Source of the DNA: Anaerolineae bacterium
GTDB lineage: Bacteria; Chloroflexota; Anaerolineae; B4-G1; DUEL01
DNA: 52,228 bases
NCBI GenBank assembly: GCA_034435295.1
Contig: DAOTYD010000072.1
Coordinates: 1-52,228, forward strand
Direction of reading: 5' to 3'
The translations under genes were made by a program, and so were the position numbers. Positions within the stretch are counted from its first letter, which is position 1, and each line of letters begins with the position of its first letter. The notes beneath the pieces were generated by a model that searched no databases, was not told the DNA's origin, and saw nothing but the letters and a program-made list of their open reading frames with translations. Of the stretch, positions 2,966 through 51,953 are shown piece by piece.

Positions 2966-3008
2966 GGTGTGGTCTGGCTTTTGCCCACGGCCACACCTTT
3001 TTGTTTTG
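2966..3008 (+). terminator. Intrinsic terminator candidate after the response-regulator gene
   Basis: Stem ggtgtgg (2966-2972) pairs with ccacacc (2991-2997), followed by tttttgtttt. Confidence 0.5.
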
Positions 3009-3019
3009 GCATCCTTGCG

Positions 3020-3757
3020 ATGAACGTAACGGTCGTGATCCCCACCTACAACGAGGCCGAGAACGTCGAGGCGATGGCCGAGGCGCTGTGGGGCCTGGGC
3101 ATCCCTGACCTGCACGTCCTCATCGTCGATGACGAATCGCCCGATGGGACCGGGGCCATCGCCGACCGGCTGGCAGAGGAAAACCCGGGCCGGCTGAGCG
3201 TGTTGCACCGCAGCGGACCGCGCGGCCTGGGCCGCGCCTATGTCGACGGCTTCCGCTGGGCCCTCCAGCACGGCGCCGACGCCATCGTGCAGATGGACTG
3301 CGACTTTTCCCACGCCCCCGCCGACGTGCCGCGCCTGCTGGCCCACCTCCCTGACTATGACGTCGTCATCGGTTCGCGCTATGTCAGGGGGGGGCGGACC
3401 GACGAAAAGTGGAGCTTTGGGCGGGTGCTGCTTTCGTGGTGGGCCAACTTTTACGCGCGGGTCATCCTGGGCTGCCGCGTGCGCGACATCACCGCCGGCT
3501 TCAAAGCCTGGCGGCGCCAGGCCCTGGCGGGCATCGACCTGGACTGCATTTTCTCGCAGGGCTATGTCTTCCAGGTCGAGATGATCTATGTCGCCGAGCG
3601 GCTGGGCTACCGCATCCTGGAGGTGCCCATCTACTTCGAAGACCGGCGCATCGGCCGTTCCAAGATGACCATGCCGGTCAAGTTCGAGGCGGCCTGGCGG
3701 GTATGGCAGGTGCGCTGGCGACACCGCCATCTGCAACCGCGCCACGGAGAGGTATGA
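3020..3757 (+). CDS. GT2 polyprenol-phosphate glycosyltransferase (dolichyl/undecaprenyl-phosphate mannosyl- or glucosyl-transferase type, Ppm1/GtrB/CsbB-like)
   Basis: [15 protein letters not shown].., VDDESPDGT and DCDFSHAP (DxD-type) motifs. The stop overlaps the next ATG (ATGA at 3754-3757). Confidence 0.8.
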
Positions 3758-6700
3758 TCCGCCGACTGCTTCCCACCGCCGTCGCCGCGCTCATCCTGCT
3801 GCTGCTGCCCCTGCTCCTCTTTGCCCCCGTCGCCCTGGGCAACCGCACGCTGCTTCCCGTCGACGCCCTCTTCCTCTTCGAGCCGTACCGCGCTGCCGCC
3901 GCTGAGCTGGGCGTGACGAGGGTGCAAAATGGCCTGGTTGCCGACCTGATCCTGGAAAACTATGCCTGGAAGCGCTTTATCCTGCAGGCGCTGCAGAACC
4001 ACGAGCTGCCGCTGTGGGATCCCTACATCTTTGCTGGCCATCCCTTTCTCGCCAACGGCCAGCACTCGGCCCTCTATCCGCTGAGCGTCGTCTTTTACGT
4101 CCTCCCGCTATGGCGGGCCTTTGGCGTGTTTGCCTGGCTGCAACTGGGGCTGGCCGGCCTGTGGACCTATCTCTTCGCCCGCGTGCTGGGCATCCGCCGG
4201 CTGGGCGCTCTGCTGGCCGGCATCGTCTTCCAGTTCAGCGGCTTTATGGTCGTGTCGGTGGTCCACCCCATGATCATCGCCGGGGCCTCGTGGCTGCCCT
4301 TTATCCTGGCGATGGTCGAACTGATCGTCCGCCAGCGCCCGGCGCTGGGCCAGCGACCGTCCAGCCTGCCCTGGGCGCTGCTGGGAGCGGTCGGCCTGGG
4401 CTGCCACATGCTTGCCGGGCACGCCGAGAACACCTACTTTGTCCTGCTGGTCACGGCGCTGTATGTGGCCTGGCGGCTGAGCGGGCTGTTCGTCGGCGCG
4501 CTGCGCGAGCACAGGGCCGCTGGCGCAGCGCGGCGGCTGGCGCGGCCGCTGTTCTGGCTGGCGCTGATGCTGATCCTGGGGCTGGCCCTCGGCGCGGTCC
4601 AGTTCATTCCCCTGTACGAGGTCGCGGCAGATAGCTTCCGCTCCGGCGAGGCAGCGGCGACGCTGGCGCAGGTGCGCGGCTGGGCTTATCCCCCCCGCCG
4701 CCTGATCACCTTTGGCATTCCCAACTTTTTCGGCAACCCGGCCCACCACAGTTACTTTGACCTTTTCCAGTGGCGCACCGTGCCCGTCACCACGAACGCC
4801 TACGACCACCCCATCGACAGCACCGACTGGGGGATCAAGAATTATGTCGAGGGCGGCGCCTACCTGGGACTGCTGCCATTGCTGCTGGCGGTGTTGTCTA
4901 TCGCGTATCGCCCATCGCTTATCGCTTATCGCCCATCGCTTATCGCTTATCGCAAATCACACATCGCGGCAAGCGATACGCGATATGCGATAGGCGATAC
5001 GCGATATGCCGTTCTCTTCTTCACCCTGCTCAGCCTCTTTTCCCTCGGCTGCATCTTTGGCACGCCGCTCTATGCCCTGGTCTATGCCCTGCCCTACATC
5101 AGCCAGTCGCACTCTCCCTTCCGTTGGGTCTTTCCGCTGACGCTCTCGGTGGCAGTGCTGGCGGGGTTCGGGGTCGAGGAGGTGCGCAGACGGAATGGGG
5201 CGCAAGGGGTAAGGAGTGAGGAGCAAGGGACAAAGGGCAAGGGACAGGGGACAGCGGGCAGGTGGTTTCTTCTCGGCGCGTCGCCCTCGCTGGTCAGCGC
5301 GTTGGCGGCGCTGGCGTTCTGGGGCGGCCTGCTGACGCTGGCGGGGCTGGCGCTCAGCCGGCTCTTTTTCGCCCAGATCGAGCCGCTGGTGGAGCGCCTC
5401 TTCCTCGGCCTGGCGCTGGCGCCCAACGCCTTCCCCGACCACCGCGCCTTTTATTCCTACGAGTTCAAATGGATCGCTCTCTTCGGCCTGTTGCTCGCCG
5501 GGACGGGCATCGTCCTGCGTCTCAGCCGCTGCCCGATCACCCTGAAGCGACGGCCGCTGTGGGAGTTTCTGGCGCTGGGCCTGCTGGTCGTCGATATGGT
5601 CTCGTTCGGCGCGGGATTCCACCCCGCTGTCGACCCGGCGCTGCTCGACTATACCCCGCCCGTGGTCGAATTTCTGCGCCAGGACACGACCCTCTGGCGC
5701 TATGCCACCTTCACCCCGCCCGGCACGACCAAGACGATGAACGCCAACACAGGGATGTTCTACAACCTGCAGGCCGTCAACGGCTACGACTCGCTCTTTT
5801 CGCGCCAGTACGCCGACTATATGGGCCTGATCGAGGAACAGGACGAGTTGCAGTACAACCGCATCGCCTCGTTCAGCGACTGGTCGAGCCTGGACAGCCC
5901 GCTCATGGACCTCCTCAACGTCAAGTACATCCTCAGCGAGGTCGAAATCCCCAACCCGGCCAAATACCGCCTGGTCTACCGCGACGAGTCGCTCTATGTC
6001 TACGAGAACCTGGCGGCGATGAGCCGTGCGTTCACCCTGCCGGCGTCGGCGGCGGTGGTCATGCAGGACGTGGCCACGGCGCTGCGCACGTATGACCCGC
6101 ACCAGTTTGTGGTCCTGGAGAGAGAAGCGCCAGCCGCGCCAGCCGCCCCCCAGCCGGCCACGGCAACTCCCCAGACGGTCGTCGAGTACACGATGGACCA
6201 GGTGACGGTCGACGCGACGCTGGCCGGGCCGGGCTGGCTGGTGCTGGGCGACTCGTACTTTCCCGGCTGGAAGGCGTTCGTGCGGCCACAGGGAGCCGGC
6301 CCAGAGGCCGAGCGGGAGGTCGAGATCCTCCGCGCCGACGGCAACTTTCGCGCCGTCTTTCTGGAGGCAGGCGCGTGGACCGTTCGTTTCAAGTACAGCC
6401 CCAACAGCGTCAAGGTTGGCGCCTTTGTCTCTTTCATCGCCGCGATGACGCTGCTCTTCTTGAGCGGCCTCTACCTGTGGCGCTTTTTCTACCGCGAGGA
6501 GGACGACGCCAGCACGGTGCGGCGCGTGGCCAAGAACTCGCTGGCGCCGATCGTGCTCAACCTGTTCAACCGCGCCATCGAGTTTGCCTTTGCCGCGCTG
6601 GCGGCGCGCATCCTGGGGCCGGTGGGCAACGGCCGCTTTGCCACGGCAGCCAACATCTACATCTGGTTCGACATTATCGCCAACTTTGGGCTGGACATGT

Positions 6701-7980
6701 ACCTGATGCGCGAGGTGTCCAGCGACCGCAGCCGCGCGCGGCGGCTGCTGGTCAATACGAGCGTCCTGCGCCTGCTGCTCTACCTGGCGGCGGCGCCCGT
6801 CCTGGCCGCCTTCCTGGGCGGCTGGCAGGGATTGGGCTCGCCGCTGGCCGACGAGACGCTGTGGACGGTGGCTCTGCTCTACATCGGCCTGCTGCCGAAC
6901 ACCTTTGCCTACGGACTGGCGGCCCTCTTCCGCGGTTTCGAGAAACACGAGATCCCCGCCGCCATTCAGACGGTGACGACAATTGTCAAGGTGACGCTGG
7001 GGGTGCTGGCGCTGGTCGCCGGGCTGGGCATCCGCGGCATCGCCGGCGCGTCGGTCCTGACCAACGGGACGACGCTGCTCATCCTGGCCGTGCTGGCGCG
7101 GCGGCTGATCTGGCCGCACCTGCCGCCAGCGCGGGAGCGCGTCGCCTGGCCGCTGCAGCGCCTGATGCTGGCCGAGAGCTGGCCGCTGATGGTCTCGTTT
7201 CTCCTGCAATACCTCTTCCCCGGCATCAACATCCTGCTCCTGCAGCGGCTGCAAGGCGACGCCGTGGTTGGCTGGTACGATGCCGCCCGCAAATGGGTCG
7301 ACGCGCTGAATCTGATCCCGTCGGTTTTTACCTTCGCCGTCTTTCCGGTCATCTCACAGCAAGCGGCGCATGACCGCCTCGCCATGCGCCGCACCTATCA
7401 CCTGTCGGCCAAGCTGCTGCTGATCGTGGCCCTGCCAGCGGCGGTGCTCGTCAGCCTGCTGGCGACGCCGCTGGTCGGCCTGCTCAGCGGGGCCGCCTTC
7501 CTACCCGACGGCGCCATCGCCCTGCGCCTGCTGATCTGGTCGATCCCCTTGGGCTGGATCAACAGCCTGACCAACTATGCGCTGATCGCGCTCAACCGCC
7601 AGCGCTACGTCCTGGTCGCTTCGGGGGCACGGGTCTTTTTTACCCTCGTGGCGAATCTGTTGCTGGTGCCGCGCTGGAGCTATACGGCCTCGGCGTGGAT
7701 CATGATCGGCGGCGAGTTGCTGCTGGCGATCCTCTTCTACCTCGGCCTGCGCCGCCAGACGGGGCCGGTGGCCTGGGGAGCGATTGGGGTCCGCCCTCTC
7801 CTGGCCGGCCTGGCGATGGCTGCCGTGGCCTGGCTGCTGGCTCCCGTCAGCCTGGCGCTGGCGCTGGTGGCGAGCGCGGCGATATATCCGCTCGCCCTGC
7901 TCCTCCTGCGCGCCCTGGACGCGGAGGAGCGGGCCGCGCTTTCCCCCCTGCTGCCCGCTCCCCTGCGCCGCGAACGCTGA
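3754..7980 (+). CDS. Fusion protein: YfhO-like GT-C membrane glycosyltransferase (about aa 1-920) fused to a MOP/Wzx-type polysaccharide flippase (about aa 920-1408)
   Basis: The N-terminus resembles YfhO ([23 protein letters not shown], many TM segments). From about 6510 the sequence is [38 protein letters not shown], typical of Wzx/RfbX. No stop codon lies between the two parts. The RBS is ggagagg. Two in-frame repeat tracts are inside (4899-5009 and 5202-5257). Confidence 0.7.
4899..5009. repeat. Heptamer tandem-repeat hairpin (atcgcNN x8, then inverted gcgatNN x5) inside the YfhO fusion CDS
   Basis: The left arm tatcgcgtatcgcc (4899-4912) is the exact complement of ggcgatacgcgata (4993-5006). 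Period 7 nt. It is translated as [38 protein letters not shown]. Confidence 0.85.
5202..5257. repeat. Purine-rich degenerate heptamer tract (8 x 7 nt) inside the YfhO fusion CDS
   Basis: gcaaggg gtaagga gtgagga gcaaggg acaaagg gcaaggg acagggg acagcgg, translated as [20 protein letters not shown]. Confidence 0.7.
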
Positions 7981-14554: not shown

Positions 14555-14800
14555 GCAGAACGCCGGCGTGGAGCCCCCCATTGCTCGGCGGGGGTCTGTG
14601 ACCCCCGCCAGTGGGGCCGCCGCGTCACAGACCCGGCGGGAGCAGGGCGGGCGAGGCATTCTATCCTTTGGCTTCGAACACCCCGGCGCAGGACAGCTAC
14701 AAGCAGTTGTCCTACGAATCAGTGTCGCAACGAGACCCTTCGCTCCGCTCAGGGTGACATGGGTTTCGCTCAGGGTGACATCGCTCTTGCTTACCAGGAG
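14555..14800. repeat. Composite REP/MITE-like element (module a inverted, module b direct, relative to the 40708-40975 locus)
   Basis: 14555-14641 is about 85-90% identical by eye to the reverse complement of 40708-40802. 14691-14785 (ggacagctacaagcagttgtcctacgaa..gtgtcgcaacgagaccc..cgctcagggtgacatgggttt x1.7) matches 40815-40975. Confidence 0.8.
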
Positions 14801-19097: not shown

Positions 19098-19117
19098 AGG
19101 TCCTCCTTGGAAAGTGT

Positions 19118-19165
19118 GCAAGTATGCAAGTATGCAAGTATGCAAGTATGCAAGTAAGCAAGTGG
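19118..19165. repeat. Octamer tandem repeat (gcaagtat x4, gcaagtaa, gcaagtgg)
   Basis: Read directly. It lies 20 nt upstream (minus sense) of the aminotransferase start codon. It shares the gcaagt core with the pheT in-frame repeat. Confidence 0.9.
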
Positions 19166-19367
19166 GGCGACGGATTGGGGCGAGGGTTGGGCGCGGTGCT
19201 GCTCGTGTTCCTGGGCCAGCCGCTGGAAGAGGCGGTAAACCCGGCGGATAGGCAGCCTGGCGGCAGCGCCGCCGGTCGGACGATGTAGTTCTTCAGCGTT
19301 CTGTATTCCACGACGATCCCCTCCTGGCGATGGACGCCAGCCCACAGACAACGAACCACGCGACACG

Positions 19368-19397
19368 CTTTACGTTTTACGTTTTACGCTTTACGTT
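19368..19397. repeat. Heptamer tandem repeat (ctttacg ttttacg ttttacg ctttacg)
   Basis: Read directly. It lies about 24 nt downstream of the stop of the 19421-20734 gene. Confidence 0.85.
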
Positions 19398-25270: not shown

Positions 25271-25340
25271 TTTCGTGTTGCGTGTTGCGTGGTGCGTGAC
25301 GCGTGCCACCACGGAACACGCACCACGCAACACGTCACCC
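25271..25340. repeat. Heptamer-array hairpin with an 18-bp stem
   Basis: gtgttgcgtggtgcgtg (25282-25298) is the exact reverse complement of cacgcaccacgcaacac (25317-25333), plus one flanking C-G pair. The arms are tgcgtgN / cacgcaN heptamers. Confidence 0.9.
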
Positions 25341-33512: not shown

Positions 33513-36116
33513 ATGAAAATCCCCCTGTCCTGGCTCAAAGAATACGTCGACATCGACCTGCCCATCCCCGCCCTGGCCGAACGGCTGACGCTGGCCGGCC
33601 TGGAAGTGGAAACGGTCAACTATATCGGCCTGCCGGGCGCGGCGCTGCCGTGGGACCCCGACAAGATCGTCATCGGCGAGGTCGTCGCCGTCCATCCGCA
33701 CCCCGAAGCCGACCGCCTGGTGCTGGCCGAGGTGAACTATGGCGGCCCCGAAACCGAGGTGGTCGTCTCCGGCCCGCCCAGCCTGAAGCGGATCGAAGGG
33801 CAGAGCGGGCTGCACCTCAAAGTGGCCTTTGCCTTCGAGGGCGCCCGCCTGTGGGACCCCTATTCCGCCGAGCCGCAGATCAAGACGCTGAAAAAGTCCA
33901 AAATCCGTGGCGTCGTCTCGCGGGCGATGGTCTGCTCGGAAAAAGAGCTGGGCCTCTCCGACGAGCACGAGGACATCATCTACCTGCCCGACGACGCGCC
34001 GGTCGGCATGCCGCTGGTCGATTACCTGGGCGACGCGGTGCTCGAGTTCGACATCAAGGGGCCGTTTGCCCATCTCTACTCGGTCGTCGGCGTGGCCCGC
34101 GAGGTGGCAGCGCTGCTGGGCGTGCCGCTGCGACGCGACGCGCTGGAGGTGCTGGAGCGCCACCCGGCCGGGTTGACCGCTACCCCCTCTTTCATCGAAC
34201 TGGAGATCGCCGATCCCGACCTCTGCCCGCGCTACTCGGCAGCGATGATCCGCGGCGTGACGGTGCGCCCATCGCCGCTGTGGATGCAGATGCGCCTGCG
34301 TTATGCCGGCATGCGCCCGATCAACAACATCGTCGACGTCACCAACTATGTGATGCTCGAACTGGGCCAGCCGCTGCACGCCTTCGACTACCACGTCCTG
34401 CGGGCGCGACCGGGGGCAGAGACGCCCGCCATCATCGTCCGCCGCGCCCGCCCCGGCGAGCAGATGCGCACGCTCGACGGCGAGCTGCGCACCTTCGACA
34501 GCGAAATGCTGCTCATCACCGACGGCGGCGGGCCGGTGGCAGTGGCCGGCGTCATGGGCGGCCTGGAAAGCGAGATCACCGACGCCACAACCGACATCCT
34601 GCTCGAATCGGCCAACTTTCACTTCCTCAGCATCCGCCGCACCTCGCGCCTGCTGGGGCTGGCCAGCGAGTCGAGCGTGCGCTTTGGCCGGCGGGTCGAC
34701 CCCGAGCTGACGGTCAAAGCAGCCGCCCGCGCCGCTCACCTCATGGTCGAACTCGGCGGCGGCACGGTCGTCCCCCTCATCGGCGACCTCTACCCCGGCC
34801 GCCAGCCGCAGCGGGTCATCGAGCTCGACCCCGCCTACGTCGCCCGCATCCTGGGCATCGAGATACCGGTCGAGGAGATAACGCGCATCCTCACCTCGCT
34901 GGAGTTCGAAGTGGGCAAGGAGGCAAGTGAGCAAGTGGGCAAGGAGGCAAGTGAGCAAGTGGGCAAGTCGGCAAGTACGCAAGAACCTGCAAACTTGCAG
35001 ACTTGCAAACTTGCAAACATCCCCGCGTCTCCCCCTCTCCGCGTCTCCATTCCCTCCCACCGCCAGGACGTCACCCGCCCGGTGGACCTGATGGAGGAAG
35101 TGGGGCGCATCTGGGGCTATGACCGCTTCCCGGCGACGCTCATCCGCGACGAGATGCCGCCGCAACGGGCCAATCCTCGCCTGGAAGGGATCGAACGGCT
35201 GCGCGACCTGCTGGTCGGCCTGGGCCTTGACGAGGTCATCACCTATTCGCTGGTTGACGCCGAAGAGGAGCGTCCCTTCCATCCCCCCGCCGCGCCCTTC
35301 GACGCAGAGAGATACCTGCGCCTGCGCAACCCCCTCTCCAGCGACCGCTCCGCCCTGCGCCAGACGCTGCTGCCTTCGCTGCTGCACGTCGCGCGCAAAA
35401 ACCTGCGCTTCCTCGACCGCGTCGCCGTGTTCGAGATCGCCGCGGTCTATCTGCCGGTGGAGGGACAGACCCTGCCCGAAGAGCCGCGCCGGCTGGGCAT
35501 CGTCATGACCGGCCCCCGCGAGGAGCGTTCGTGGATCGCCGGGCAGGACCGCTCGCCGATGGGCTTTTACGAGCTGAAGGGCGTGGTCGAGACGCTGCTG
35601 GCGCGCCTGGGGGTGGAGGGGACGTTCGTTCCGCACCAGCACCCGGCTTTCCACCCCGGCCGCTGCGCCCGGCTGCACATCGGTGAGCAGACGCCCGGCG
35701 TGATGGGCGAGCTTCATCCGCAGGTGCGAGAAGCTTTCGGCCTGCCCTCCCAGCCCGTCTGCGCCCTCGAGTTCGATCTGGAGGAGCTGTTGGCCGCCGG
35801 CGACCGGGCGCGCAAGATGAAGCCCATTTCCACCCATCCGCCGGTCTACGAGGACCTGGCGGTGGTGGTGGACGAGGCGCTGCCGGCGGCGAGTGTGTAC
35901 CGGGTCATCATGCAGGCTGGCGGCGCGTTGCTCCGTTCGGCCGAACTGTTCGATGTCTACCGTGGCGAGCAGATCGGCGCCGGGCGCAAGAGCCTGGCTT
36001 ACCGCCTCACCTACCAGGCCGACGACCGCACCCTGACCGATCAGGACGCCAGCAAATTGCGCGCCAGGATCGTGCGCACGCTGGAGCGCGAGCTGGGCGC
36101 AGCGCTGCGCGGCTAG
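33513..36116 (+). CDS. pheT: Phenylalanine--tRNA ligase beta subunit (with an in-frame repeat insertion)
   Basis: MKIPLSWLKEYVD.., tRNA-binding, B3/4, B5 and FDX-ACB domains are recognisable (IPSHRQDVTRPVDLMEEVGRIWGYD; KSLAYRLTYQ). RBS aggaga is present. Confidence 0.95.
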   Translation: MKIPLSWLKEYVDIDLPIPALAERLTLAGLEVETVNYIGLPGAALPWDPDKIVIGEVVAVHPHPEADRLVLAEVNYGGPETEVVVSGPPSLKRIEGQSGLHLKVAFAFEGARLWDPYSAEPQIKTLKKSKIRGVVSRAMVCSEKELGLSDEHEDIIYLPDDAPVGMPLVDYLGDAVLEFDIKGPFAHLYSVVGVAREVAALLGVPLRRDALEVLERHPAGLTATPSFIELEIADPDLCPRYSAAMIRGVTVRPSPLWMQMRLRYAGMRPINNIVDVTNYVMLELGQPLHAFDYHVLRARPGAETPAIIVRRARPGEQMRTLDGELRTFDSEMLLITDGGGPVAVAGVMGGLESEITDATTDILLESANFHFLSIRRTSRLLGLASESSVRFGRRVDPELTVKAAARAAHLMVELGGGTVVPLIGDLYPGRQPQRVIELDPAYVARILGIEIPVEEITRILTSLEFEVGKEASEQVGKEASEQVGKSASTQEPANLQTCKLANIPASPPLRVSIPSHRQDVTRPVDLMEEVGRIWGYDRFPATLIRDEMPPQRANPRLEGIERLRDLLVGLGLDEVITYSLVDAEEERPFHPPAAPFDAERYLRLRNPLSSDRSALRQTLLPSLLHVARKNLRFLDRVAVFEIAAVYLPVEGQTLPEEPRRLGIVMTGPREERSWIAGQDRSPMGFYELKGVVETLLARLGVEGTFVPHQHPAFHPGRCARLHIGEQTPGVMGELHPQVREAFGLPSQPVCALEFDLEELLAAGDRARKMKPISTHPPVYEDLAVVVDEALPAASVYRVIMQAGGALLRSAELFDVYRGEQIGAGRKSLAYRLTYQADDRTLTDQDASKLRARIVRTLERELGAALRG
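34915..35017. repeat. Octamer tandem-repeat hairpin (gcaagNNN x9, then NNNcttgc x3-4) inside pheT
   Basis: An exact 24-nt duplication (34911-34934 = 34935-34958). The inverted arm is cctgcaaacttgcagacttgcaaacttgcaaa. It is translated as GKEASEQVGKEASEQVGKSASTQEPANLQTCKLAN. Confidence 0.9.
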
Positions 36117-38973: not shown

Positions 38974-39075
38974 GCGAGGATTTCCAACAGTGGGGCTGCG
39001 ATAGCTTTCCTCTTTCCCGCAAACTATGCTATACTATATCACGAAACCAACTCCCAGAAGGTGTGTTTCGTGTCG

Positions 39076-39897
39076 ATGAATATAACAGAATTAGGCCCCA
39101 GAGAAGCCGAGTTCCTCTCCCGGCTGGCCGGCGAGGGGCGGTCGGTCTTTACCGTCAGGCAGGCGCGCCGTTTCTGGGGCAACCCGGCCTATACGACCAA
39201 CGTGCTGGGCCGCCTGGAAAACAAGGGCTGGCTGCGCCGCCTGGAACGCGGCACGTACCTGATCATCCCACTGGAGGCCGGCCCCACCCGTGACTGGTCG
39301 GAGAGCGCGCTCGTGCTCGCGCCGTACCTGATCCAGCCAGCCGCTATCGCCTATTGGTCGGCGCTGCACTTTTGGAACATGACCGAGCAGATCCCCGACA
39401 CGTTCTTTGTCCAGTCCACCCGCCGCAAGCACCGCCGCCAGATCGAGGTGCTGGGTGTGCCCTTCCGCTTCGTCACCATCCCCGAGGCCCGTTTCTTTGG
39501 CGTGGCCCAGCGCACCCTCGACGGCAAGTCGATCTACGTCACCGATCGCGAAAAGACTCTGCTCGACGCTGCCGACCGCCCCGACTTGAGCGGCGGAATC
39601 GGCCAACTGGCACACGCGCTGCGCGCGGCCTGGAGCGACGTGGACTGGCCGCGGCTCGACGAGTACCTGGCCCGTTGGGGCATGGGCAGCCTGGTCAAGC
39701 GACTGGGCTACCTGGTCGAAACGCTGGAACTGCCGCTGCCCGACCGCGAGGAGCGGCTGGCCCGCTGGCAATCGGCGCTGACCGCCGGCATCGCGCTGCT
39801 CGAAAGCCGCAGCGGTCACAGCGGCCGCATCGTGACGCGCTGGCGGCTGCGCGTGAACGTGGCCGAGACCTGGCGCGGCGGGGAGGCCGGGCCATGA
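39076..39897 (+). CDS. abiEi: AbiEi-family type IV toxin-antitoxin antitoxin / transcriptional regulator
   Basis: The N-terminal wHTH-like part is FLSRLAGEGRSVFTVRQARRF..VLGRLENKGWLRRLERGTY, and the C-terminal AbiEi_4-like part is IAYWSALHFWNMTEQIP. In-frame GTG starts at 39061 or 39070 are also possible. An extended -10 (tgctatact) is at 39027-39035. Confidence 0.7.
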   Translation: MNITELGPREAEFLSRLAGEGRSVFTVRQARRFWGNPAYTTNVLGRLENKGWLRRLERGTYLIIPLEAGPTRDWSESALVLAPYLIQPAAIAYWSALHFWNMTEQIPDTFFVQSTRRKHRRQIEVLGVPFRFVTIPEARFFGVAQRTLDGKSIYVTDREKTLLDAADRPDLSGGIGQLAHALRAAWSDVDWPRLDEYLARWGMGSLVKRLGYLVETLELPLPDREERLARWQSALTAGIALLESRSGHSGRIVTRWRLRVNVAETWRGGEAGP

Positions 39898-40631
39898 TCA
39901 GCGAGGCCGAACTGCGCCGCCTGGCGGCGCGCTGGGGCGTCGACCCGATGGTGGTCGACCTGGATTATAGCCTGGGCTGGTTCATCGCCGCGCTCTACAG
40001 CGCCAACGCGCTCGCCGATCGGCTGTGCTTCAAAGGCGGCACCGCCCTGCGCAAGTGCTATTTCGCCGATTATCGCTTTTCCGAGGACCTGGATTTTACC
40101 GCGCTGGCGCGCGTCGAACCCGACCAACTCCTGAGATGGGTCGAGCGCGCCGCGCGCTGGGCTGCGGAAGCGAGCGGCCCTGACTATCGCGCCGCCCCGC
40201 CGCGCCTGGAGGTCCTCCGCGACGAATACGGCAGCGAGAGCTACCAGGTGCGCGTCTATTACCGCGGGCCGCTGCACTGGAGCGGCGACCCGCGGGCGAT
40301 CCGTCTGGACGTGACCCGCGAGGAACGGCTGCTGCTACCGCCTACGACATCTACCGCCTGGTTCGATCCGGCGTGACGGCCGCCGACGTCGCGCCGCTGC
40401 TGGAGCAAGTTCCAGGCGCGCGGCCTGGACGTCGAGACCATGGCTGTCGAACCGCTCGCCGCCCGGCGCGCGGCCTTTGAGGACGACTGGGCGCGCCGCC
40501 TCAGTCACCTGGTGCGCGACGCCAACGCTGTGACTTTCGAGACCGCCTGGCAGACAGCCGTGACGCTGCTGCAACAGGCAGTGGAACGCCTGGGCCTGCC
40601 GCCCGACCCACAGGAGGCGAACCGCCCATGA
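39894..40631 (+). pseudogene. abiEii: AbiEii-family nucleotidyltransferase toxin, internally deleted and frameshifted
   Basis: The N-terminus is intact (CFKGGTALRKCYFADYRFSEDLDF) up to a stop at 40374. The YDIYRLVRSGVTAADVAPLLEQ segment is in another frame (from 40343). The C-terminal fragment MAVEPLAARRAAFEDDW is again in the first frame (40440-40631). It starts by ATGA overlap with abiEi. Confidence 0.65.
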
Positions 40632-40707
40632 CCCACCCAGACGACCTTGCCGCTTTTCTCGCCCGCCCCTACGACCCCGCCACGGACGACTGCCGCCACC
40701 CGCCCTG

Positions 40708-41150
40708 CTCCCGCCGGGTCTGTGACCCCCGCCGGGCCTCCACTGGCGGGGGTCGCAGATCCCTGCCGGGCAAGGGATGCCCCACGTCGGCGTTCTGCTA
40801 CACCCCCCTGGTGTAGGACAACTGCTCGCAGTTGTCCTACGAACTGTGCGGGTCACAGAGCCGGCGGGAGCGGGGAGTCATCCGTGTCGCAACGAGATCC
40901 TTCGCTTCGCTCAGGATGACATGGGTTTCGCTCAGGGTGACATGGGTTTCGCTCAGGGTGACATGGGTGTTCGTGGCAAAAAGGTAGAGCGCCCCCCGTC
41001 CTGTTCCCGCCGGGTCTGTGACCCGGCGGCCCCCACCGGCGGCGGTCACAGGCCGCGAAATCCGTGAAATCTGTGTAATCTGTGGCCAAAAAACAGACTC
41101 CCGCCGGGCAAGGGTTGTCCCACGTCGGCGTTCTGCTCCGAACACCCTTC
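40708..41150. repeat. Composite REP/MITE-like array (modules a, b and c)
   Basis: Module a (40708-40802) equals the reverse complement of 14555-14641. Module b is the hairpin gtaggacaactgc/gcagttgtcctac (40813-40841) plus a 21-nt unit cgctcagggtgacatgggttt x3 (40908-40970). Module c (41005-41144) equals 17-43, one 68-bp unit, and 189-238 of the window start. Confidence 0.85.
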
Positions 41151-41226
41151 CAAGAAGGCGACTTGCGAAGAATCAGAGTCGTGGTAGAATATCAATCAGT
41201 AAAAATAGCAGGAACAACGTTAACCC

Positions 41227-45954: not shown

Positions 45955-47664
45955 GTGCACAAATCCGCCGCCAGACTGCTGAGCTGCCTGCTCCTCCTGA
46001 CGCTCGCTGGCTGCACAGCCAACCCCCTCTTTGCCTGGACGGGCGAGGACGACCTGAGCAGCCAGCTCTACGGCCTGTTCCAACTGGCGGGCAATCCCCT
46101 GCGCCCCCAGCCGCGCACCGCCCGCTACTCCCCCGTCGACAACGCCGGGGTCAATCCCTTTGGCATCAACGTCTTTCTCGAACAAGAGGTCGAGCCGGAG
46201 AAGCGGGCGCAGACGCTGCAGATGATCGCCGCGGCTGGCTTCCACTGGATCCGCCAGGAGTTCCCCTGGGAGGACATCGAGATCCACGGGCGGGGCGATT
46301 TCGTCGACCGGCGCAACGATCTGGACGGCGACGGTCAGGCCGACGCCGTGGACGCCTGGGCCAAGTACGACCAGATCGTCGCCCTGGCCGAGGAATATAG
46401 GCTGGAGATCATCGCCCGCCTGAGCAACCCTCCGGCCTGGTCGCGCGCCGACGGCAACGAGCGCGGCACCTACGCCCCGCCCGATGACCTGAACGACTAT
46501 GGCAACTATGTCCACACCGTCGCCGCGCGCTACCGTGGCCGCATCCGCTACTACCAGGTCTGGAACGAACCCAACATCTACCCCGAATGGGGGGAGCAGC
46601 CGGTCGACCCGGAGGCCTACACCGAACTGCTCTGCCTGGCCTATCGGCGGATCAAGGAGGCTGACCCGCAGGCAGTGGTCATCAGCGGCGCGCTGGCGCA
46701 GACGATCGAGCTGAGCGGGCGCGATCTGAACGACCTGATCTTTTTGCAGCGCATGTACGACGCCGGGGCAGCGGACTGTTTCGACGTCCTGGCCGTCAAC
46801 GCCTATCTGCTCTGGTCCGGCCCCACCGACCGCCGCCTGCAGCCGCTTTATGTCAACTACAGCCGCCCGCTCTACCTGCGCGACATCATGGTCGCCAACG
46901 GCGATGCCCACAAGCCCATCTGGATCAGCGAGATGAACGCCAACGCCGTGCCCAACGACCCCGCCATCCGCGGCCTGGGCAGCTATGGACAGGTCACCCT
47001 GGAGCAACAGGCCCGCTACGTCCCCCTGGCCTACCAGCGAGCGATGGAAGAGTGGCCCTGGGTCGGCGTGGTCAGTTTCTGGTTCTTCAAGCGGGCCTCC
47101 GACACCGAGCGGGACCAGTCGTGGTACTATTTCCGCATGGCCGAGCCGGATTTCACGCCCATGCCTGTCTACGAGTCCATGCGCGCCTACATCGCCAGCG
47201 TCACACCGACCCTCTACCCCGGCGTGCACCAGGAGAGCCACTGGGCGCTGGCTTACGAAGGGGAGTGGGAGACCGTAGGGGACGAGCGGGCTGTGCTGGG
47301 CGCTTTTCGTCGCGCCCGCGCCGGGGCGGCGGTCGCCTTTCTGTTCGAAGGGCAGCAGCTCGTGCTCGATCCCGGGCCCGTGCAGGGCGCGATCGAGGTG
47401 ACGATCGACGACGGGCGGCCACGGCGCATCGTGCTGGATGGGCAGCCGGTGCGCCTCTACAGCGGCTGGCGGACGGCGCGCCATCAGGTGCGCATCGTGG
47501 TGAGGGAGGGCAGCGCCGGCATCGACAGCCTCACCGTCCGCCGGCCGGATGGAGGCCGATGGGCGCTGTTGGGCATCGGCCTGCTCGTCCTGGGCGGGCT
47601 GATTTACGCGGCGCGGCGCCAGCGCCGCTCGGCGGGGCGGCCGTCGCCGACGCGCAGGGCATAG
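45955..47664 (+). CDS. Lipoprotein, clan GH-A-like TIM-barrel glycoside hydrolase with C-terminal TM anchor
   Basis: GTG start. The lipobox is LLLTLAGC. The candidate acid/base is YYQVWNEPN and the candidate nucleophile IWISEMN. The family is not assigned. Confidence 0.6.
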   Translation: MHKSAARLLSCLLLLTLAGCTANPLFAWTGEDDLSSQLYGLFQLAGNPLRPQPRTARYSPVDNAGVNPFGINVFLEQEVEPEKRAQTLQMIAAAGFHWIRQEFPWEDIEIHGRGDFVDRRNDLDGDGQADAVDAWAKYDQIVALAEEYRLEIIARLSNPPAWSRADGNERGTYAPPDDLNDYGNYVHTVAARYRGRIRYYQVWNEPNIYPEWGEQPVDPEAYTELLCLAYRRIKEADPQAVVISGALAQTIELSGRDLNDLIFLQRMYDAGAADCFDVLAVNAYLLWSGPTDRRLQPLYVNYSRPLYLRDIMVANGDAHKPIWISEMNANAVPNDPAIRGLGSYGQVTLEQQARYVPLAYQRAMEEWPWVGVVSFWFFKRASDTERDQSWYYFRMAEPDFTPMPVYESMRAYIASVTPTLYPGVHQESHWALAYEGEWETVGDERAVLGAFRRARAGAAVAFLFEGQQLVLDPGPVQGAIEVTIDDGRPRRIVLDGQPVRLYSGWRTARHQVRIVVREGSAGIDSLTVRRPDGGRWALLGIGLLVLGGLIYAARRQRRSAGRPSPTRRA

Positions 47665-48344
47665 GCGCGCAGGCGCTTCCCCATTTCTTCCACGTCAGGC
47701 CAAAAAGAGCTGATCTGCGAGCGGTAGCAGGCCACCGCTTCGCTCCTGGCGGTCAGCGCCTCTTCATCCAGCAGGACGAGCTCTGCCGTCCAGCCCGGCC
47801 CCACCACTGTCTCGACCGCTGACGGATCCTCGGCGTAGGGATACTCTTCGTAGAAAACGAGGGCCCGGCCGCTCGCCTCGGCTGCCCGGCGCAGCAGGCG
47901 GTGGTCGACATGGCTGCCGGCGCCCAGCGGCGCATAGAGCGCGTCGGCTGTTGGCAGGGCGGCGATCCGCTGCGCCAGCGGTTCGACCAGCCTTTCGTCG
48001 GCCGGGTGGATGGCCCCCCACAGCGCCTCGTAGCCGGCATAGAGCGGCGCGTCGGCCGCGTCGCAGCGGTAGATGCAGTCGGGCAGTTCCCAGTGCAGGG
48101 CGACCGCTCCCAGCCGCGCCAGGGCGGCCAGGTCCTCTGCCCGCCGGGCGGCTGGGGCGTCGTCGCCCAGCTCCCAGCGCTGGTGCAAGGCCCGAGCGAA
48201 GGGCGAGAGCGGCCCGGGCGGGTCACCGGCAAAGACAGTGACCACCCAGACGCGGCTGCCCGTCCGCGTCTGCAGCGCGATCTGCCCGCCGCAGGAGAGC
48301 GCAGCGTCGTCCAGATGAGGGGAGAGGTAGACAAAGTGTGCCAT
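47604..48344 (-). CDS. PIG-L/LmbE-family N-acetylglucosaminyl deacetylase
   Basis: The N-terminus MAHFVYLSPHLDDAALSCGG is the family signature, with a downstream HVDH. Confidence 0.8.
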   Translation of the reverse strand: MAHFVYLSPHLDDAALSCGGQIALQTRTGSRVWVVTVFAGDPPGPLSPFARALHQRWELGDDAPAARRAEDLAALARLGAVALHWELPDCIYRCDAADAPLYAGYEALWGAIHPADERLVEPLAQRIAALPTADALYAPLGAGSHVDHRLLRRAAEASGRALVFYEEYPYAEDPSAVETVVGPGWTAELVLLDEEALTARSEAVACYRSQISSFWPDVEEMGKRLRAYALRVGDGRPAERRWRRAA

Positions 48345-48354
48345 GGGGAAGATT

Positions 48355-48420
48355 CTCGCTTCTCGCTTCTCGCTTATCGCTTATCGCGTATCGCGTATCG
48401 CGTATCGCGTATCGCGTATT
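48355..48420. repeat. Heptamer tandem repeat (ctcgctt x3, atcgctt x1, atcgcgt x5) flanked by a 30-34 bp direct duplication
   Basis: The repeat was read directly. The flanks 48321-48354 and 48421-48450 are identical except for a 4-nt indel (gaca), and both contain the ccat that is the PIG-L start codon. Confidence 0.9.
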
Positions 48421-48490
48421 GGAGAGGTAAAGTGTGCCATGGGGAAGATTATACCGCAAATCGGGCGCAGGGACATCTCTGCCTTTCTGG

Positions 48491-48731
48491 GCGCGGACGT
48501 CCCGTCCGCCGCCCTGGGAGCGCGGATGTCCCGTCCGCCGCCCTGGGAGCGCGGACGTCCCGTCCGCCGCCCTGGGAGCGCGGACGTCCCGTCCGCGCCG
48601 TCCGCGCTGCCGGCGGGCGGGGACGCCCGCGATCCCAGGAAACAGGGACGTCCCGTCCGCCGCCCTGGGAGCGCGGACGTCCCGTCCGCGCTGTCCGCGC
48701 TGCGGCGGGCGGGGACGCCCGCGATCCCAGG
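48491..48731. repeat. 29-nt head-to-tail tandem repeat (about 3.6 copies) ending in two long imperfect hairpins
   Basis: The unit gcgcggacgtcccgtccgccgccctggga starts at 48491, 48520, 48549 and 48578. Hairpins cctgggagcgcggacgtcccgtccgc / gcgggcggggacgcccgcgatcccagg lie at about 48571-48638 and about 48663-48731. Confidence 0.85.
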
Positions 48732-50550: not shown

Positions 50551-51543
50551 TCAATACCAGGGGACGAAAAAGGTCTCGGCCGTCAAAGTGCGCCCGTCGG
50601 GCGTCACAACCGTCACATTGATGAGGATTTTGCGCCCCACCAGCAGCGAGTCGAAGGAAAAAGTTGTGCTGGCAATGCCACGTTGGTCTGACGGCCCCGC
50701 TGGATAAACCACTGTCCCCCATGGAAAGTACACCGTCACCGTTGCTGTGACGCCTTCAACGGGCTGGCGGTTGCTGTCGACCAGATAGACAAAGACAGTT
50801 TGCTCCCCTTCACGTCCAGTGATCATGCTACGGACATAGGCCGAAATGCGCGCCAGGTTGGCCGAAGTCTGAGGGCGGGGTGGTTCTGGCTCAGGCACCA
50901 GGTACTCTGGCGGGACCATCGACAGGAACTGTACCCCCAGAGAGCCCAAGACGACCCGGTCATCCCGCGGGCGTTCGGCATGCCACTCCATCCGCGCGCG
51001 CTGGAAATACTGCACAACGCGGTTGTTTTCTATGAACGGTTCCGTGATCGGATAGCCAAAGATATCCAGGGCGCCATTGTTGTCGTAAAAGGTCAGAAAA
51101 GCGAACGAGACCACATGGCCCGTTTCGGGAAAATAGCGGCGGAGGGGGTTGCCCAAGGGGACCTGGTTGCTGGGAATGGGCGGCATGCGCATCCCCAGTT
51201 CTTCCCCTAACAGGCCAAGCTGGACCCTGTAGGGTTCGGGGTTAGAGGGGTGCCACTCCATCCGCACGTTGTCGAAATACTGCACCCAAAGACCCAGCCT
51301 GGCATCGTAATAGAGACGCGAGCGCGGATAACCAAAGATGCGATAGCCACCGCGGGCGTTGTAGAAATCCAGAAAGGGCCCCCTGACAACGAACCCTGTC
51401 TGGGGAAAGCGTTGATTCGGCTCATCAGGAGGAGGCGGAGGTTGCTGCCGCAGCATGGCCCCTGCGGGAGAGGAGAGAACAGCGGCAAGGAAAATGATGC
51501 CAATGACACAGCTCAGTAGCAGCTTGCGTGCTGACGATTTCAT
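50551..51543 (-). CDS. Secreted hypothetical protein with two LGFP-like internal repeats and a C-terminal Ig-like/beta domain
   Basis: A signal/TM segment LLLSCVIGIIFLAAVLSSPAGA. The duplicated module is F..FY...GG..IFGYP......VQYF...RMEWH (aa about 45-115 and 140-210). Confidence 0.55.
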   Translation of the reverse strand: MKSSARKLLLSCVIGIIFLAAVLSSPAGAMLRQQPPPPPDEPNQRFPQTGFVVRGPFLDFYNARGGYRIFGYPRSRLYYDARLGLWVQYFDNVRMEWHPSNPEPYRVQLGLLGEELGMRMPPIPSNQVPLGNPLRRYFPETGHVVSFAFLTFYDNNGALDIFGYPITEPFIENNRVVQYFQRARMEWHAERPRDDRVVLGSLGVQFLSMVPPEYLVPEPEPPRPQTSANLARISAYVRSMITGREGEQTVFVYLVDSNRQPVEGVTATVTVYFPWGTVVYPAGPSDQRGIASTTFSFDSLLVGRKILINVTVVTPDGRTLTAETFFVPWY

Positions 51544-51622
51544 GGTTCACCCCAACCTGCCAAGAACCTCATTGCTGCCATTTATTCATTATACTCGATT
51601 TTCTCTCCTATAGCAATGGGCA

Positions 51623-51690
51623 AAAACGGCTAATCGCTTATCGCATATCGCTTATCGCTTATCGCTTGTCGCTTGTCGCTTGTCGCATAA
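51623..51690. repeat. Heptamer tandem repeat (atcgctt/atcgcat x5, gtcgctt x2, gtcgcat)
   Basis: Read directly. It shares the unit family with 4899-5009 and 48355-48420. A partial inverted copy cagcgataagcgat is at about 51917-51930. Confidence 0.85.
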
Positions 51691-51953
51691 TCGGCAAAGT
51701 GCGGAGATTGCGCCCAAACCTGCGGGAGGGCAGGCGGTTACACCAAGAGCTGTTCATCTCTACAAAATATAGAGAAAATCTGGCTATTTGGCAAAGTTCT
51801 GATAGGGAAAGGTAAAAACTCTCAATCAGGCATGCTCTGGCCTGGGTGTTCCGCTCAAACCTGCGGCGGTGGATATTTGCAGCTCATCGCTTATTGCATC
51901 ATCGGCAAAGCGTGTACGAGGGTCAGCGATAAGCGATCATGTCTTCAGCCGCT

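Follow-up and report, generated by a model that had tools for sequence, protein, structure and literature searches.

The start of the PIG-L gene has been duplicated in the Anaerolineae sequence analysed here, a stretch of 52,228 nt referred to below as the window. On the minus strand, a heptamer array at the gene start is bracketed by two direct copies of it, 34 and 30 nt long. This arrangement is rather likely to be a lineage-specific duplication scar in a leaderless promoter/start module, produced by slippage or tandem duplication and then by microsatellite growth. The mutation scar is real but local, and is not a general signature of repeat origin.

The proximal copy lies at 48321–48354 (plus strand ggagaggta-gaca-aagtgtgccatggggaagatt) and the distal copy at 48421–48450 (plus strand ggagaggta-aagtgtgccatggggaagatt). 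An exact 22-nt repeat is common to both (48333–48354 and 48429–48450), with a spacing of 96 nt. This is beyond chance: of 2000 pairs of flanks drawn at random in the window, only 5 shared at least 15 nt. The minus-strand ATGs at 48344 and 48440 are in the same frame, 96 nt apart. An earlier note on this DNA had described both the direct copies around the array and the two in-frame ATGs; the latter can be read from the sequence, and the former are also borne out by three independent assemblies of the window's lineage, H1 (NCBI, ENA and JGI), in which the structure is identical. A stretch of 175 nt is identical in the window and the independent assemblies L017 and L018.

Direct reading of the sequence was combined with comparison to a sister lineage, H2, which has TATAAT, 6 nt and ATG at the site equivalent to the proximal copy (L011). 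On this basis the proximal copy of an ancestral duplication of ~39 nt is placed at 48321–48357 (minus strand). It contains a degenerate -10 box (GAGAAT, 48357–48352), a 7-nt spacer, the ATG at 48344 and codons 1–8 (MAHFVYLS). The distal copy, delimited by direct reading and haplotype comparison at 48421–48453 (minus strand), contains TATAAT (48453–48448), which ends 7 nt from the ATG at 48440, followed by GCACACTTT and ACCTCTCC; it lacks four nucleotides (GTCT) present in the proximal copy. The sequence flanking it upstream, GATTTGCGG, matches that beside the single copy of the relative L014. The copies do not abut as in a simple tandem duplication – in every haplotype seen there is an array of 59–66 nt between them – and no haplotype was found that has the duplication and lacks the array. 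There is no obvious microhomology at the ends of the 39-nt unit. A tandem unit of 95–96 nt, comprising array and start, was ruled out, as a second array is missing both upstream of the distal copy and downstream of the proximal one.

The gene itself (47604–48344, minus strand) encodes a PIG-L/LmbE-family deacetylase of 246 amino acids that matches Pfam PF02585 from residue 7 (E 6e-13). Judging by the alignment of its N-terminus, MAHFVYLSPHLDD, with the N-termini of orthologs, the true start is the proximal ATG at 48344. The gene is under purifying selection in both lineages, with dN/dS of 0.19–0.22 (0.19 between H1 and H2, at a dS of 0.12). An exact-match search with the PIG-L protein of the window returned no record, and relatives were reached through a 96%-identical protein cluster.

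TATAAT followed by 7 nt and ATG occurs once in the window, with none expected from 100 shuffles; TATAAT itself was found 10 times, against 1.4 expected. No Shine-Dalgarno motif (GGAG, GAGG or AGGA) is present within 20 nt before the proximal ATG. The locus thus has the features of a leaderless gene, TANNNT 6–7 nt before the start and no Shine-Dalgarno, with the window's own proximal box degenerate, and the position of the box matches that published for predicted leaderless genes (PMC3160421). The earlier note's view of this spacing as leaderless geometry is upheld by its conservation in the orthologs L002, L003, L005, L014, L144 and L145, which have TAnnAT 6–7 nt before an ATG or GTG. A TATAAT 7 nt before the ATG would place the transcript start at or beside the start codon.

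Upstream of the distal TATAAT by 17 nt is a weak -35-like hexamer, ATGTCC (48471–48476, minus strand), recognised by reading the sequence and by comparison with orthologs; in the more distant of these (L002, L003, L144 and L145) the position is TTGTCA. Neither PIG-L promoter was picked up by a consensus promoter scan, nor was the -35-like ATGTCC, because the -35 elements are weak. H1 and H2 differ at only one position of the 44 nt that precede the distal box. The leader has no match in Rfam, and its fold z-scores (+0.9 and +1.2; energies weaker than those of shuffles) give no sign of a structured RNA or riboswitch. There is no terminator-like site between 48344 and 48440.

The array, a heptamer microsatellite called by TRF at 48353–48419 (no strand assigned), consists on the minus strand of (ATACGCG)5 (ATAAGCG)2 (AGAAGCG)2, with a period of 7 and 7.1 copies at 97% matches plus 5.0 copies at 96% matches. 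The units run head to tail without interruption, as in a heptanucleotide simple sequence repeat (SSR), and the last of them extends over the proximal -10 box. The array is not flanked by inverted repeats. The GCGATAN unit family is common in the window's genome, and GCGATAC/T/G/A units are also found in at least two other arrays of the window, at 4973–5006 and 51629–51686. The arrays of H1, H2 and a further haplotype, H3, differ in unit order and number (ATACGCG/ATAGGCG/ATAAGCG in H2), with flanks 94–96% identical. Within lineages the array is identical across three H1 assemblies and across six H2 samples, so there is no length polymorphism at the consensus level, where minority variants are hidden.

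H2 has 94–96% nucleotide identity to H1, and both outer junctions of the structure are common to the two. In H2, TATAAT is present in both copies, the distal start is ATA and the 4-nt deletion is absent; its point differences are lineage-specific and present in all six samples. The earlier note had TATAAT kept only distally, which is correct for the window and does not extend to H2. Because H2 keeps TATAAT in both copies, the duplication originally included that box, making a unit of ~39 nt with the whole leaderless module, and the GAGAAT of the window represents later erosion by heptamer units rather than the edge of the duplication. The earlier note had also proposed comparing the empty site in related strains, and L014, whose PIG-L ortholog has 85% amino acid identity, supplies it: a single copy without an array, with TATAAT, 7 nt and ATG, a homologous upstream flank and the same convergent 61-nt overlap with the downstream gene. 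Candidate independent start duplications in L015, L001, L002, L003 and L005 gave local alignments no better than shuffled sequence (for L015, 340 of 2000 shuffles).

One further haplotype, L016, has the array and the proximal copy only, next to a DDE_5 insertion sequence with 19-nt inverted repeats and an unrelated upstream context. L016 and L017 have identical proteins, so the event in L016 is very recent, and the join may be an assembly chimera; the haplotype was therefore not taken to show that the gene can do without its distal promoter.

The distal ATG opens a mini-ORF of 19 codons plus TAA (48381–48440, minus strand; MAHFTSPIRDTRYAIRDTR, with the TAA at 48383–48381), read from the sequence and restricted to the window's lineage. 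It stops 36 nt before the real ATG because of the 4-nt deletion in H1; if GTCT is put back in silico into the H1 sequence as it now stands, the distal ORF has 73 codons and runs out of frame across the real start. A decoy mini-ORF, as the earlier note called it, is therefore present in H1, but it is not conserved, since H2 has ATA at this position. With this start codon, no terminator-like site, folding no more stable than shuffled sequence and no Rfam match, the locus does not have the features of a leader-peptide or uORF attenuator. The distal copy is best described, from these comparisons, as a decaying relic with a different lesion in each lineage (ATG to ATA in H2, a 4-nt deletion in H1).

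In the history that we favor, the ancestral state would have resembled L014, with TATAAT, 7 nt and ATGGC. In the common ancestor of H1 and H2, ~39 nt (TATAATCTTCCCCATGGCACACTTTGTCTACCTCTCC) would have been duplicated, a unit consisting of the -10 box, a 6–7-nt spacer, the ATG and codons 1–8, and the junction would now be filled by a microsatellite of the GCGATAN family. The downstream copy, joined to the intact frame, would have stayed the real start, while the upstream copy, still within the native upstream context of the promoter, would have become a pseudo-start that decays along a different path in each lineage. For the origin itself we infer two steps in order: ordinary slippage of replication or a tandem duplication, and then microsatellite growth at the junction. 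The array unit adjoining the proximal box (GATAAGCGAG before TATAAT) and the native upstream flank (GATTTGCG-G before TATAAT) are alike at ~8 of 10 nt, a short match; this suggests that the duplicated unit was slightly longer and seeded the array. Because the -10 box and the ATG are just 6–7 nt apart, an array would be tolerated here only with an intact module downstream of it, and this constraint of leaderless geometry would be the reason that this array alone has flanking copies.

The duplication plausibly affects expression of the deacetylase. In H2, PIG-L expression is probably still leaderless, from the proximal TATAAT. In H1, expansion of the heptamers would have turned the proximal box into GAGAAT, and transcription is probably driven largely by the distal promoter; a distal start would give an unstructured leader of 96 nt without a Shine-Dalgarno, opening with the leaderless 19-codon uORF.

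The earlier note had taken the duplication as a footprint of how such arrays arise or insert, and this does not hold for arrays in general. In a census of 335 arrays with a period of 6–9 nt, from the window and 120 metagenome loci, the PIG-L array had the highest score for flank duplication and is an outlier. Nine of the arrays, including this one, were above the 99th percentile of the control (3.4 expected), and the other high scorers that were inspected (L052/L025 and L099) are compound or low-complexity repeats. Flanking duplications are absent from the other ~seven 7–8-mer arrays of the window. As a target-site duplication, 39 nt without element termini fits no known transposition mechanism. 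The array has an empty site in a relative, as a transposon or MITE would, but not defined ends or the same element elsewhere: there are no inverted repeats, and the arrays use 121 different heptamer units. With neither termini nor inverted repeats and so many units, the arrays are not one mobile element. A general mechanism of array birth is not revealed by the PIG-L locus. A motif found beside arrays, ACTTTG (three arrays in the window, ~0.2 expected), was dropped as a candidate after 183 high-GC arrays gave 6 against 3.9 expected.

These results bear on several other explanations. It is quite improbable that the array arrived in one step, with staggered nicks ~39 nt apart filled in around a heptamer tract so that the copies record its birth. 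The array does sit exactly between two copies of a unique sequence, L014 has the empty site, the duplication without the array is missing from the haplotypes, and a second indel, beside the array at 51629–51686, has a 34-nt direct repeat of 79% identity; however, transposase target duplications are usually 2–15 nt, far shorter than 39 nt, and the census, the bare flanks of the window's other arrays and the lack of termini all argue against it. A template switch (FoSTeS/MMBIR-like) is also unlikely. A strand would have left the PIG-L start, copied another GCGATAN array and returned ~39 nt upstream, and a single event would thus explain both the copies and the filler, in a region rich in other duplications and a window where at least two other arrays have units of this family. 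No donor array with a matching unit order was identified, though, and array turnover between H1 and H2 is too fast for a donor to be recognised now. Such switching is documented mainly in eukaryotes and at E. coli amplification junctions, and to our knowledge is undocumented for events of this kind.

The structure could instead be a selected regulatory device, with tandem core promoters around a mutable heptamer tract that tune or phase-vary the deacetylase and with the H1 uORF acting as a decoy or in ribosome delivery. The architecture has been kept in two lineages through a dS of 0.12, with a spacing of 96 and 95 nt despite turnover of the units, and the 44-nt stretch before the distal box is nearly unchanged. 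AAGGAG and TATAAT are enriched in array flanks generally, and the heptanucleotide tracts of hmw1A in Haemophilus influenzae are reported to be phase-variable (PMC8262952, PMC12721329). We nevertheless hold a selected device to be quite improbable: array length is constant in the three H1 assemblies and six H2 samples, the uORF is not conserved (ATA in H2) and encodes just the repeat in translation, neither an attenuator nor a terminator structure is seen in the leader, whose folding is no better than that of shuffles, and the nearest relative, L014, is without any such architecture. An assembly artefact, in which a repeat-induced misjoin created a false duplication, is negligibly probable. Heptamer arrays are hard to assemble, and the L016 contig, with its unrelated context beside an insertion sequence, may be chimeric, but the whole structure is only ~130 nt, is the same in three independent H1 assemblies and is present in six H2 samples with point differences of their own.

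The indel near the second array, at 51706–51920, is 3.3 kb from the PIG-L array and adjoins the array at 51629–51686. The 188-nt segment at 51694–51881 is not a repeated element in the sequences compared, where its sole other match is a partial one of 42 nt in L028. A direct-repeat-flanked indel beside a second array hints at something more regular than chance slippage. It is conceivable, but very improbable, that heptamer arrays are laid down by an active process that nicks the target 30–40 nt apart and leaves long target duplications; the repeat duplication of CRISPR spacer integration is formally similar. In most cases the duplications would be lost by decay or as the array overwrites them; the one at PIG-L would survive only because selection keeps the leaderless module intact, and the indel would be a second trace.

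Several known systems resemble parts of the locus. Heptanucleotide SSRs of bacteria include the STRR of cyanobacteria and the TAACTGA repeats of Beggiatoaceae and Cyanobacteria; heptamers are described as the most abundant class of 5–11 nt, and their origin is usually attributed to polymerase slippage (PMC4679880, PMC4692102). As far as those accounts go, the likeness lies in head-to-tail 7-nt units, mostly intergenic and near gene starts, in several unit families per genome and in fast turnover between strains. The host here differs – a member of the Anaerolineae (Chloroflexota) with ~65% GC and a GCGATAN unit family – and nothing specific was found in the literature on heptamer arrays in Chloroflexi. 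In the abstract and passages of PMC4679880 consulted, no flanking promoter/start duplication is mentioned, and the duplicated promoter/start module is the unusual part here.

There is also a likeness to hmw1A/hmw2A of H. influenzae. Their heptanucleotide tract sits between tandem promoters and the start codon. As at PIG-L, it is a 7-nt SSR in the promoter/5'-UTR region upstream of the start codon, and its repeat number is reported to affect hmw1A expression (PMC8262952, PMC12721329). The PIG-L promoters, in contrast, are duplicate copies of one leaderless module, and the PIG-L array, known here from sequence, has no length polymorphism among nine assemblies.

Leaderless uORFs of mycobacteria are short ORFs with which a longer transcript begins, and the H1 mini-ORF would likewise open a longer, predicted transcript; unlike them, it combines an accidental duplicate of the first PIG-L codons with translated repeat sequence and is absent in H2. 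Leaderless genes of Actinobacteria and Deinococcus-Thermus are described as having the same TANNNT 6–7 nt before the start without a Shine-Dalgarno (PMC3160421; PMC3898074, PMC12340547). The resemblance to a transposon or MITE target-site duplication is that direct copies of host sequence bracket DNA missing from a relative's empty site; the differences are the ~39-nt length, an insert with no termini, inverted repeats or constant sequence, and the lack of duplications at other arrays.

The locus is a clean natural example of duplication of a leaderless gene's compact promoter/start unit, with the redundancy resolved in two ways. H2 kept the leaderless proximal start and lost the distal ATG, while in H1 the proximal -10 box was eroded, leaving an apparent 96-nt leader that opens with a leaderless mini-ORF. 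It is thus a small, concrete test case for leaderless genes gaining 5' leaders and upstream ORFs, and for promoter remodelling by heptamer microsatellites in Chloroflexota. The intergenic region that contains the array also holds tandem repeats of 29 nt and 93 nt, whose copy number varies between strains, so the region is slippage-prone.

The PIG-L/LmbE family protein of the window (PF02585, E 6e-13, match beginning at residue 7) is encoded on the minus strand by ORF 47604..48344, and the start of this gene is present twice. On the plus strand, 48321–48453 reads ggagaggta-gaca-aagtgtgccatggggaagatt, the heptamer array, then ggagaggta-aagtgtgccatggggaagatt-ata. A repeat finder located an exact direct repeat of 22 nt (48333–48354 and 48429–48450) at a spacing of 96 nt, and TRF located the period-7 array at 48353–48419. 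Read on the minus strand, the distal module is TATAAT(48453–48448)-cttcccc-ATG(48440)GCACACTTT-ACCTCTCC, the array between the copies is A(ATACGCG)5(ATAAGCG)2(AGAAGCG)2A, and the proximal module is GAAT-cttcccc-ATG(48344)GCACACTTTGTCTACCTCTCC-CCTCATCTGGACGAC... The ORF from the distal ATG, MAHFTSPIRDTRYAIRDTR, ends at a TAA (48383–48381). An earlier note on this DNA had described the mini-ORF and its in-frame ATGs 96 nt apart, and both were borne out in the window; all of its coordinates proved correct. TATAAT occurs 10 times in the window (1.4 expected), and TATAAT-N7-ATG is found once (0 expected). Of 2000 flank pairs drawn at random from the window, only 5 shared at least 15 nt, and the longest such matches have the length of its known tandem repeats. 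The duplicated-start pattern is therefore not due to chance.

A predicted leaderless start for PIG-L is well supported by conservation. A TAnnAT box 6–7 nt ahead of the start codon recurs among the orthologs – TTGTCA-16-TAGAAT-6-ATG in L002, TTGTCA-16-TACAAT-7-ATG in L003, TACAAT-7-GTG in L144, TACAAT-7-ATG in L145, TAAGAT-6-ATG in L005, and TATAAT-7-ATG in the closer L014. The earlier note was right that a leaderless-type start had been duplicated, and its interpretation is upheld in part. The spacing agrees with that reported for predicted bacterial leaderless genes in a study that covered 12 Chloroflexi genomes and predicted ca. 4–6% of genes to be leaderless in four of them (PMC3160421). 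In the window, no GGAG, GAGG or AGGA precedes either ATG. A consensus promoter scan of the window called neither PIG-L promoter, the -35 elements being weak: ATGTCC stands in the distal copy at the place of TTGTCA in distant orthologs, and this position in the proximal copies is occupied by array sequence.

The nearest matches to the PIG-L protein in the genome collection were Anaerolineae/Anaerolineales MAGs with 64–68% amino acid identity, while the protein database held one 96%-identical cluster, one 85% relative and one 75% relative. Contigs of the protein-database relatives provided four states of the locus. The window lineage, H1, includes L017 (ENA) and L018 (JGI), identical to the window across the 175 nt compared. 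The sister lineage, H2 (L011-13 and L139-143, from six samples), is mutually identical at the locus and, across 17 kb of syntenic sequence, 94–96% identical to the window. Its distal side is ...GATTTGCGG TATAAT cttcccc ATA GCACACTTTGTCTACCTCTCC, its array is A(ATACGCG)2(ATAGGCG)2(ATACGCG)(ATAGGCG)(ATACGCG)(ATAAGCG)AG, and its proximal side is TATAAT ctcccc ATG GCACACTTTGTTTACCTCTCC CCTCAT... L014 (85% amino acid identity) has a single copy and no array, ...GATTTTGCAG TATAAT aacgctc ATGGCC..., and, as in the window, PIG-L and the convergent downstream gene overlap by 61 nt; this is the empty site. H3 (L016) has only the proximal copy, and a longer GATAAGC/GAGAAGC array abuts unrelated sequence and an IS (L016 730–2165) that encodes a DDE_5 transposase, ends in 19-nt inverted repeats and lies ca. 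27 nt from the enlarged array. H3 may have arisen by a recent rearrangement or may be an assembly chimera joined at the array, and for this reason was given no weight. Around the start codon of the 64%-identical ortholog L001, the sequence (2980–3010) is a 9-nt tandem duplicate (TCGATGGCT TCGATGGCT) after GGCAAG GGCAAG, perhaps a minor duplication that arose independently at this gene start.

Both outer junctions of the duplication are common to H1 and H2: GATTTGCGG|TATAAT distally, and CTCTCC|AATACGCG where the array begins to adjoin. It therefore arose in a single event, after the L014 lineage split off (dS 0.38) and before H1 and H2 separated (dS 0.12). The ancestral unit, TATAATCTTCCCCATGGCACACTTTGTCTACCTCTCC, is 39 nt long and spans -10 box, spacer, ATG and codons 1–8, ending directly before the PHLDD-motif codons. 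No position distinguishes both distal from both proximal copies in the two lineages, and each of the four has a private change – loss of GTCT in the H1 distal copy, ATG>ATA in the H2 distal copy, TAT>GAG inside the -10 box with two extra AAGCGAG units in the H1 proximal copy, and loss of one spacer T with a synonymous GTC>GTT in the H2 proximal copy. The claim that only the distal copy keeps TATAAT thus holds for the window but does not define the extent of the duplication, since H2 has TATAAT in both copies; by this comparison, the missing proximal box of the window is secondary erosion. Similarly, the decoy mini-ORF exists in H1 but is confined to that lineage, as the H2 distal start is ATA.

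The proximal ATG opens an intact frame of 246 codons, and the N-terminus from it agrees with all orthologs; the distal copy is a pseudo-start. The dN/dS of PIG-L is 0.19 between H1 and H2 and 0.20–0.22 against the unduplicated L014, which, with the intact, ortholog-matching frame, indicates that the gene is functional and expressed in both architectures. When GTCT is put back into H1 in silico, the distal ORF has 73 codons and crosses the real ATG out of frame; with the 4-nt deletion it terminates 36 nt upstream of that ATG. In H2 the distal start codon itself is lost. Two unlike lesions, two events only, both neutralise the distal start, which suggests selection against an overlapping decoy.

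Expression is predicted to differ between the lineages. In H2, the proximal TATAAT-6-ATG should still be able to yield a leaderless PIG-L mRNA, and distal-box transcripts would start at AUA, their leader being 95 nt long. The proximal box of H1 is GAGAAT (4 of 6 matches, with A at position 2 and T at position 6 kept), and most transcription probably starts from the distal promoter. Its transcript would have an AUG at the 5' end, a 19-codon peptide, and then 36 nt to the real AUG. The H1 leader has no Rfam match, a fold no better than shuffled sequence (z-scores +0.9 and +1.2) and no terminator-like site; in an unstructured, terminator-free leader of this kind, the real AUG would be reached via the open leader without a Shine-Dalgarno sequence, or through re-initiation once the uORF has been translated. 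Over the 44 nt upstream of the distal box, H1 and H2 show a single difference, compatible with continued use of the distal promoter.

The duplication had been proposed as a general footprint of how such arrays arise, and this was not upheld. TRF found about eight arrays of 7-8-mers in the window (4899–5006, 19112–19163, 19365–19397, 25274–25339, 34909–35048, 48353–48419, 51629–51686, and a few short ones); of these, the PIG-L array alone is bracketed by duplicated unique sequence. A metagenome collection scanned for the exact 21-mer (ATACGCG)3 gave at least 120 loci (L019-L138), 807 kb among the matches listed, on at least 120 contigs with GC contents from 32% to 75%. The listed matches hold 316 TRF period-7 rows of at least 3.5 copies, ca. 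one per 2.6 kb, though overlapping rows may be one array; heptamer-bearing genomes tend to hold many such arrays. Among 335 arrays with a period of 6–9 nt and full flanks, from the window and the listed loci, seven had flanks sharing at least 12 nt by exact match, and nine exceeded the 99th percentile of matched controls in local alignment of the flanks, with 3.4 expected. The PIG-L array had the top alignment score of the 335, and the other high scorers inspected (L052/L025, L099) were compound repeats. The duplication is thus peculiar to the PIG-L locus. With 121 different heptamer units among them, the arrays cannot all be copies of a single mobile element. AAGGAG (21, 5.8 expected) and TATAAT (7, 1.5 expected) are overrepresented in array flanks, and arrays therefore tend to sit close to gene starts. 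Because the leaderless -10 box and ATG of PIG-L are 6–7 nt apart, selection may act as a filter here, an array persisting only if a complete module stays downstream.

The PIG-L intergenic region is a hotspot for tandem duplication. Between the divergent promoters, 48491–48731 consists of GC-rich 29-nt tandem repeats (consensus unit GCGCGGACGTCCCGTCCGCCGCCCTGGGA, 6.7 copies) and a 93-nt higher-order repeat; only ca. 30 nt correspond to these repeats in H2 (L139), and copy number differs in L017 and L018. The favoured origin has two steps: the module would have been duplicated by a slippage-type event, and a microsatellite would then have grown at the junction. In H2, the array unit closest to the proximal box, GATAAGCGAG|TATAAT, is similar to the native flank, GATTTGCG-G|TATAAT, so the duplicated unit may have been ca. 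48 nt long and supplied the array seed. Against this order, no haplotype among those compared has abutting copies without an array, and no microhomology was found at the ends of the duplicated unit. Two rival origins, a one-step template switch copying another GCGATAN array and, slightly less probable, a staggered-nick insertion, are each unlikely. A mechanism more regular than slippage has a small probability because of a second repeat-flanked indel, of ca. 188 nt, at 51706–51920. It lies next to the array at 51629–51686 and is absent from H2 (L139); a 34-nt direct repeat of 79% identity, which takes in the first units of that array, borders it on both sides. The segment holds an internal 18-nt direct repeat (51708–51725 and 51849–51866) and is repeated nowhere else among the sequences compared.

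Heptanucleotide SSRs are a recognised, abundant bacterial class, including cyanobacterial STRR and TAACTGA repeats, and are usually explained by polymerase slippage (PMC4679880; PMC4692102). In Haemophilus influenzae, phase variation of hmw1A is reported to depend on a 7-nt tract that precedes the start codon, in the promoter/5'-UTR region (PMC8262952; PMC12721329). Both leaderless genes and short leaderless ORFs have been amply documented in Actinobacteria and Deinococcus-Thermus (PMC3898074; PMC12340547). The PIG-L locus combines these known features, and only their configuration is new – a leaderless module duplicated, split by an SSR, and decaying alternatively in sister lineages. A literature search found no description of heptamer arrays in Chloroflexota.

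Several other elements of the window were noted. The 8-mer array at 34909–35048 is in frame within an 867-aa ORF (33513..36116), whose syntenic gene in L139 encodes a PheT-like product of 853 aa (PF01588, B3_4, B5), and 4899–5006 is an inverted heptamer array pair (TATCGCN / NGCGATA) within a 1523-aa ORF (3409..7980). Lying inside long ORFs, both seem to be translated as part of large proteins that may be essential. The 2.2 kb at 38985–41201, opposite 265 nt in L139, contains ORF 39354..40376 and MITE/REP-like elements with CTGTGACCC...GGGTCACAG inverted repeats, 9-mer (GAAATCTGT) arrays and 21-mer (TTCGCTCAGGGTGACATGGGT) arrays. Noted together with this stretch were 27–191 and 40690–41140, and related copies lie at the window start and at 14744–14785. 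In the region 51541–51593, just downstream of a heptamer array, a perfect TATAAT (51593–51588, minus strand) lies 6 nt ahead of an ATG opening a very short ORF, and ca. 45 nt downstream of it follows another start, which has a Shine-Dalgarno-like sequence and an N-terminus resembling a signal peptide (MKSSARKLLLSC...); the short ORF may be a further leaderless mini-ORF ahead of a gene.
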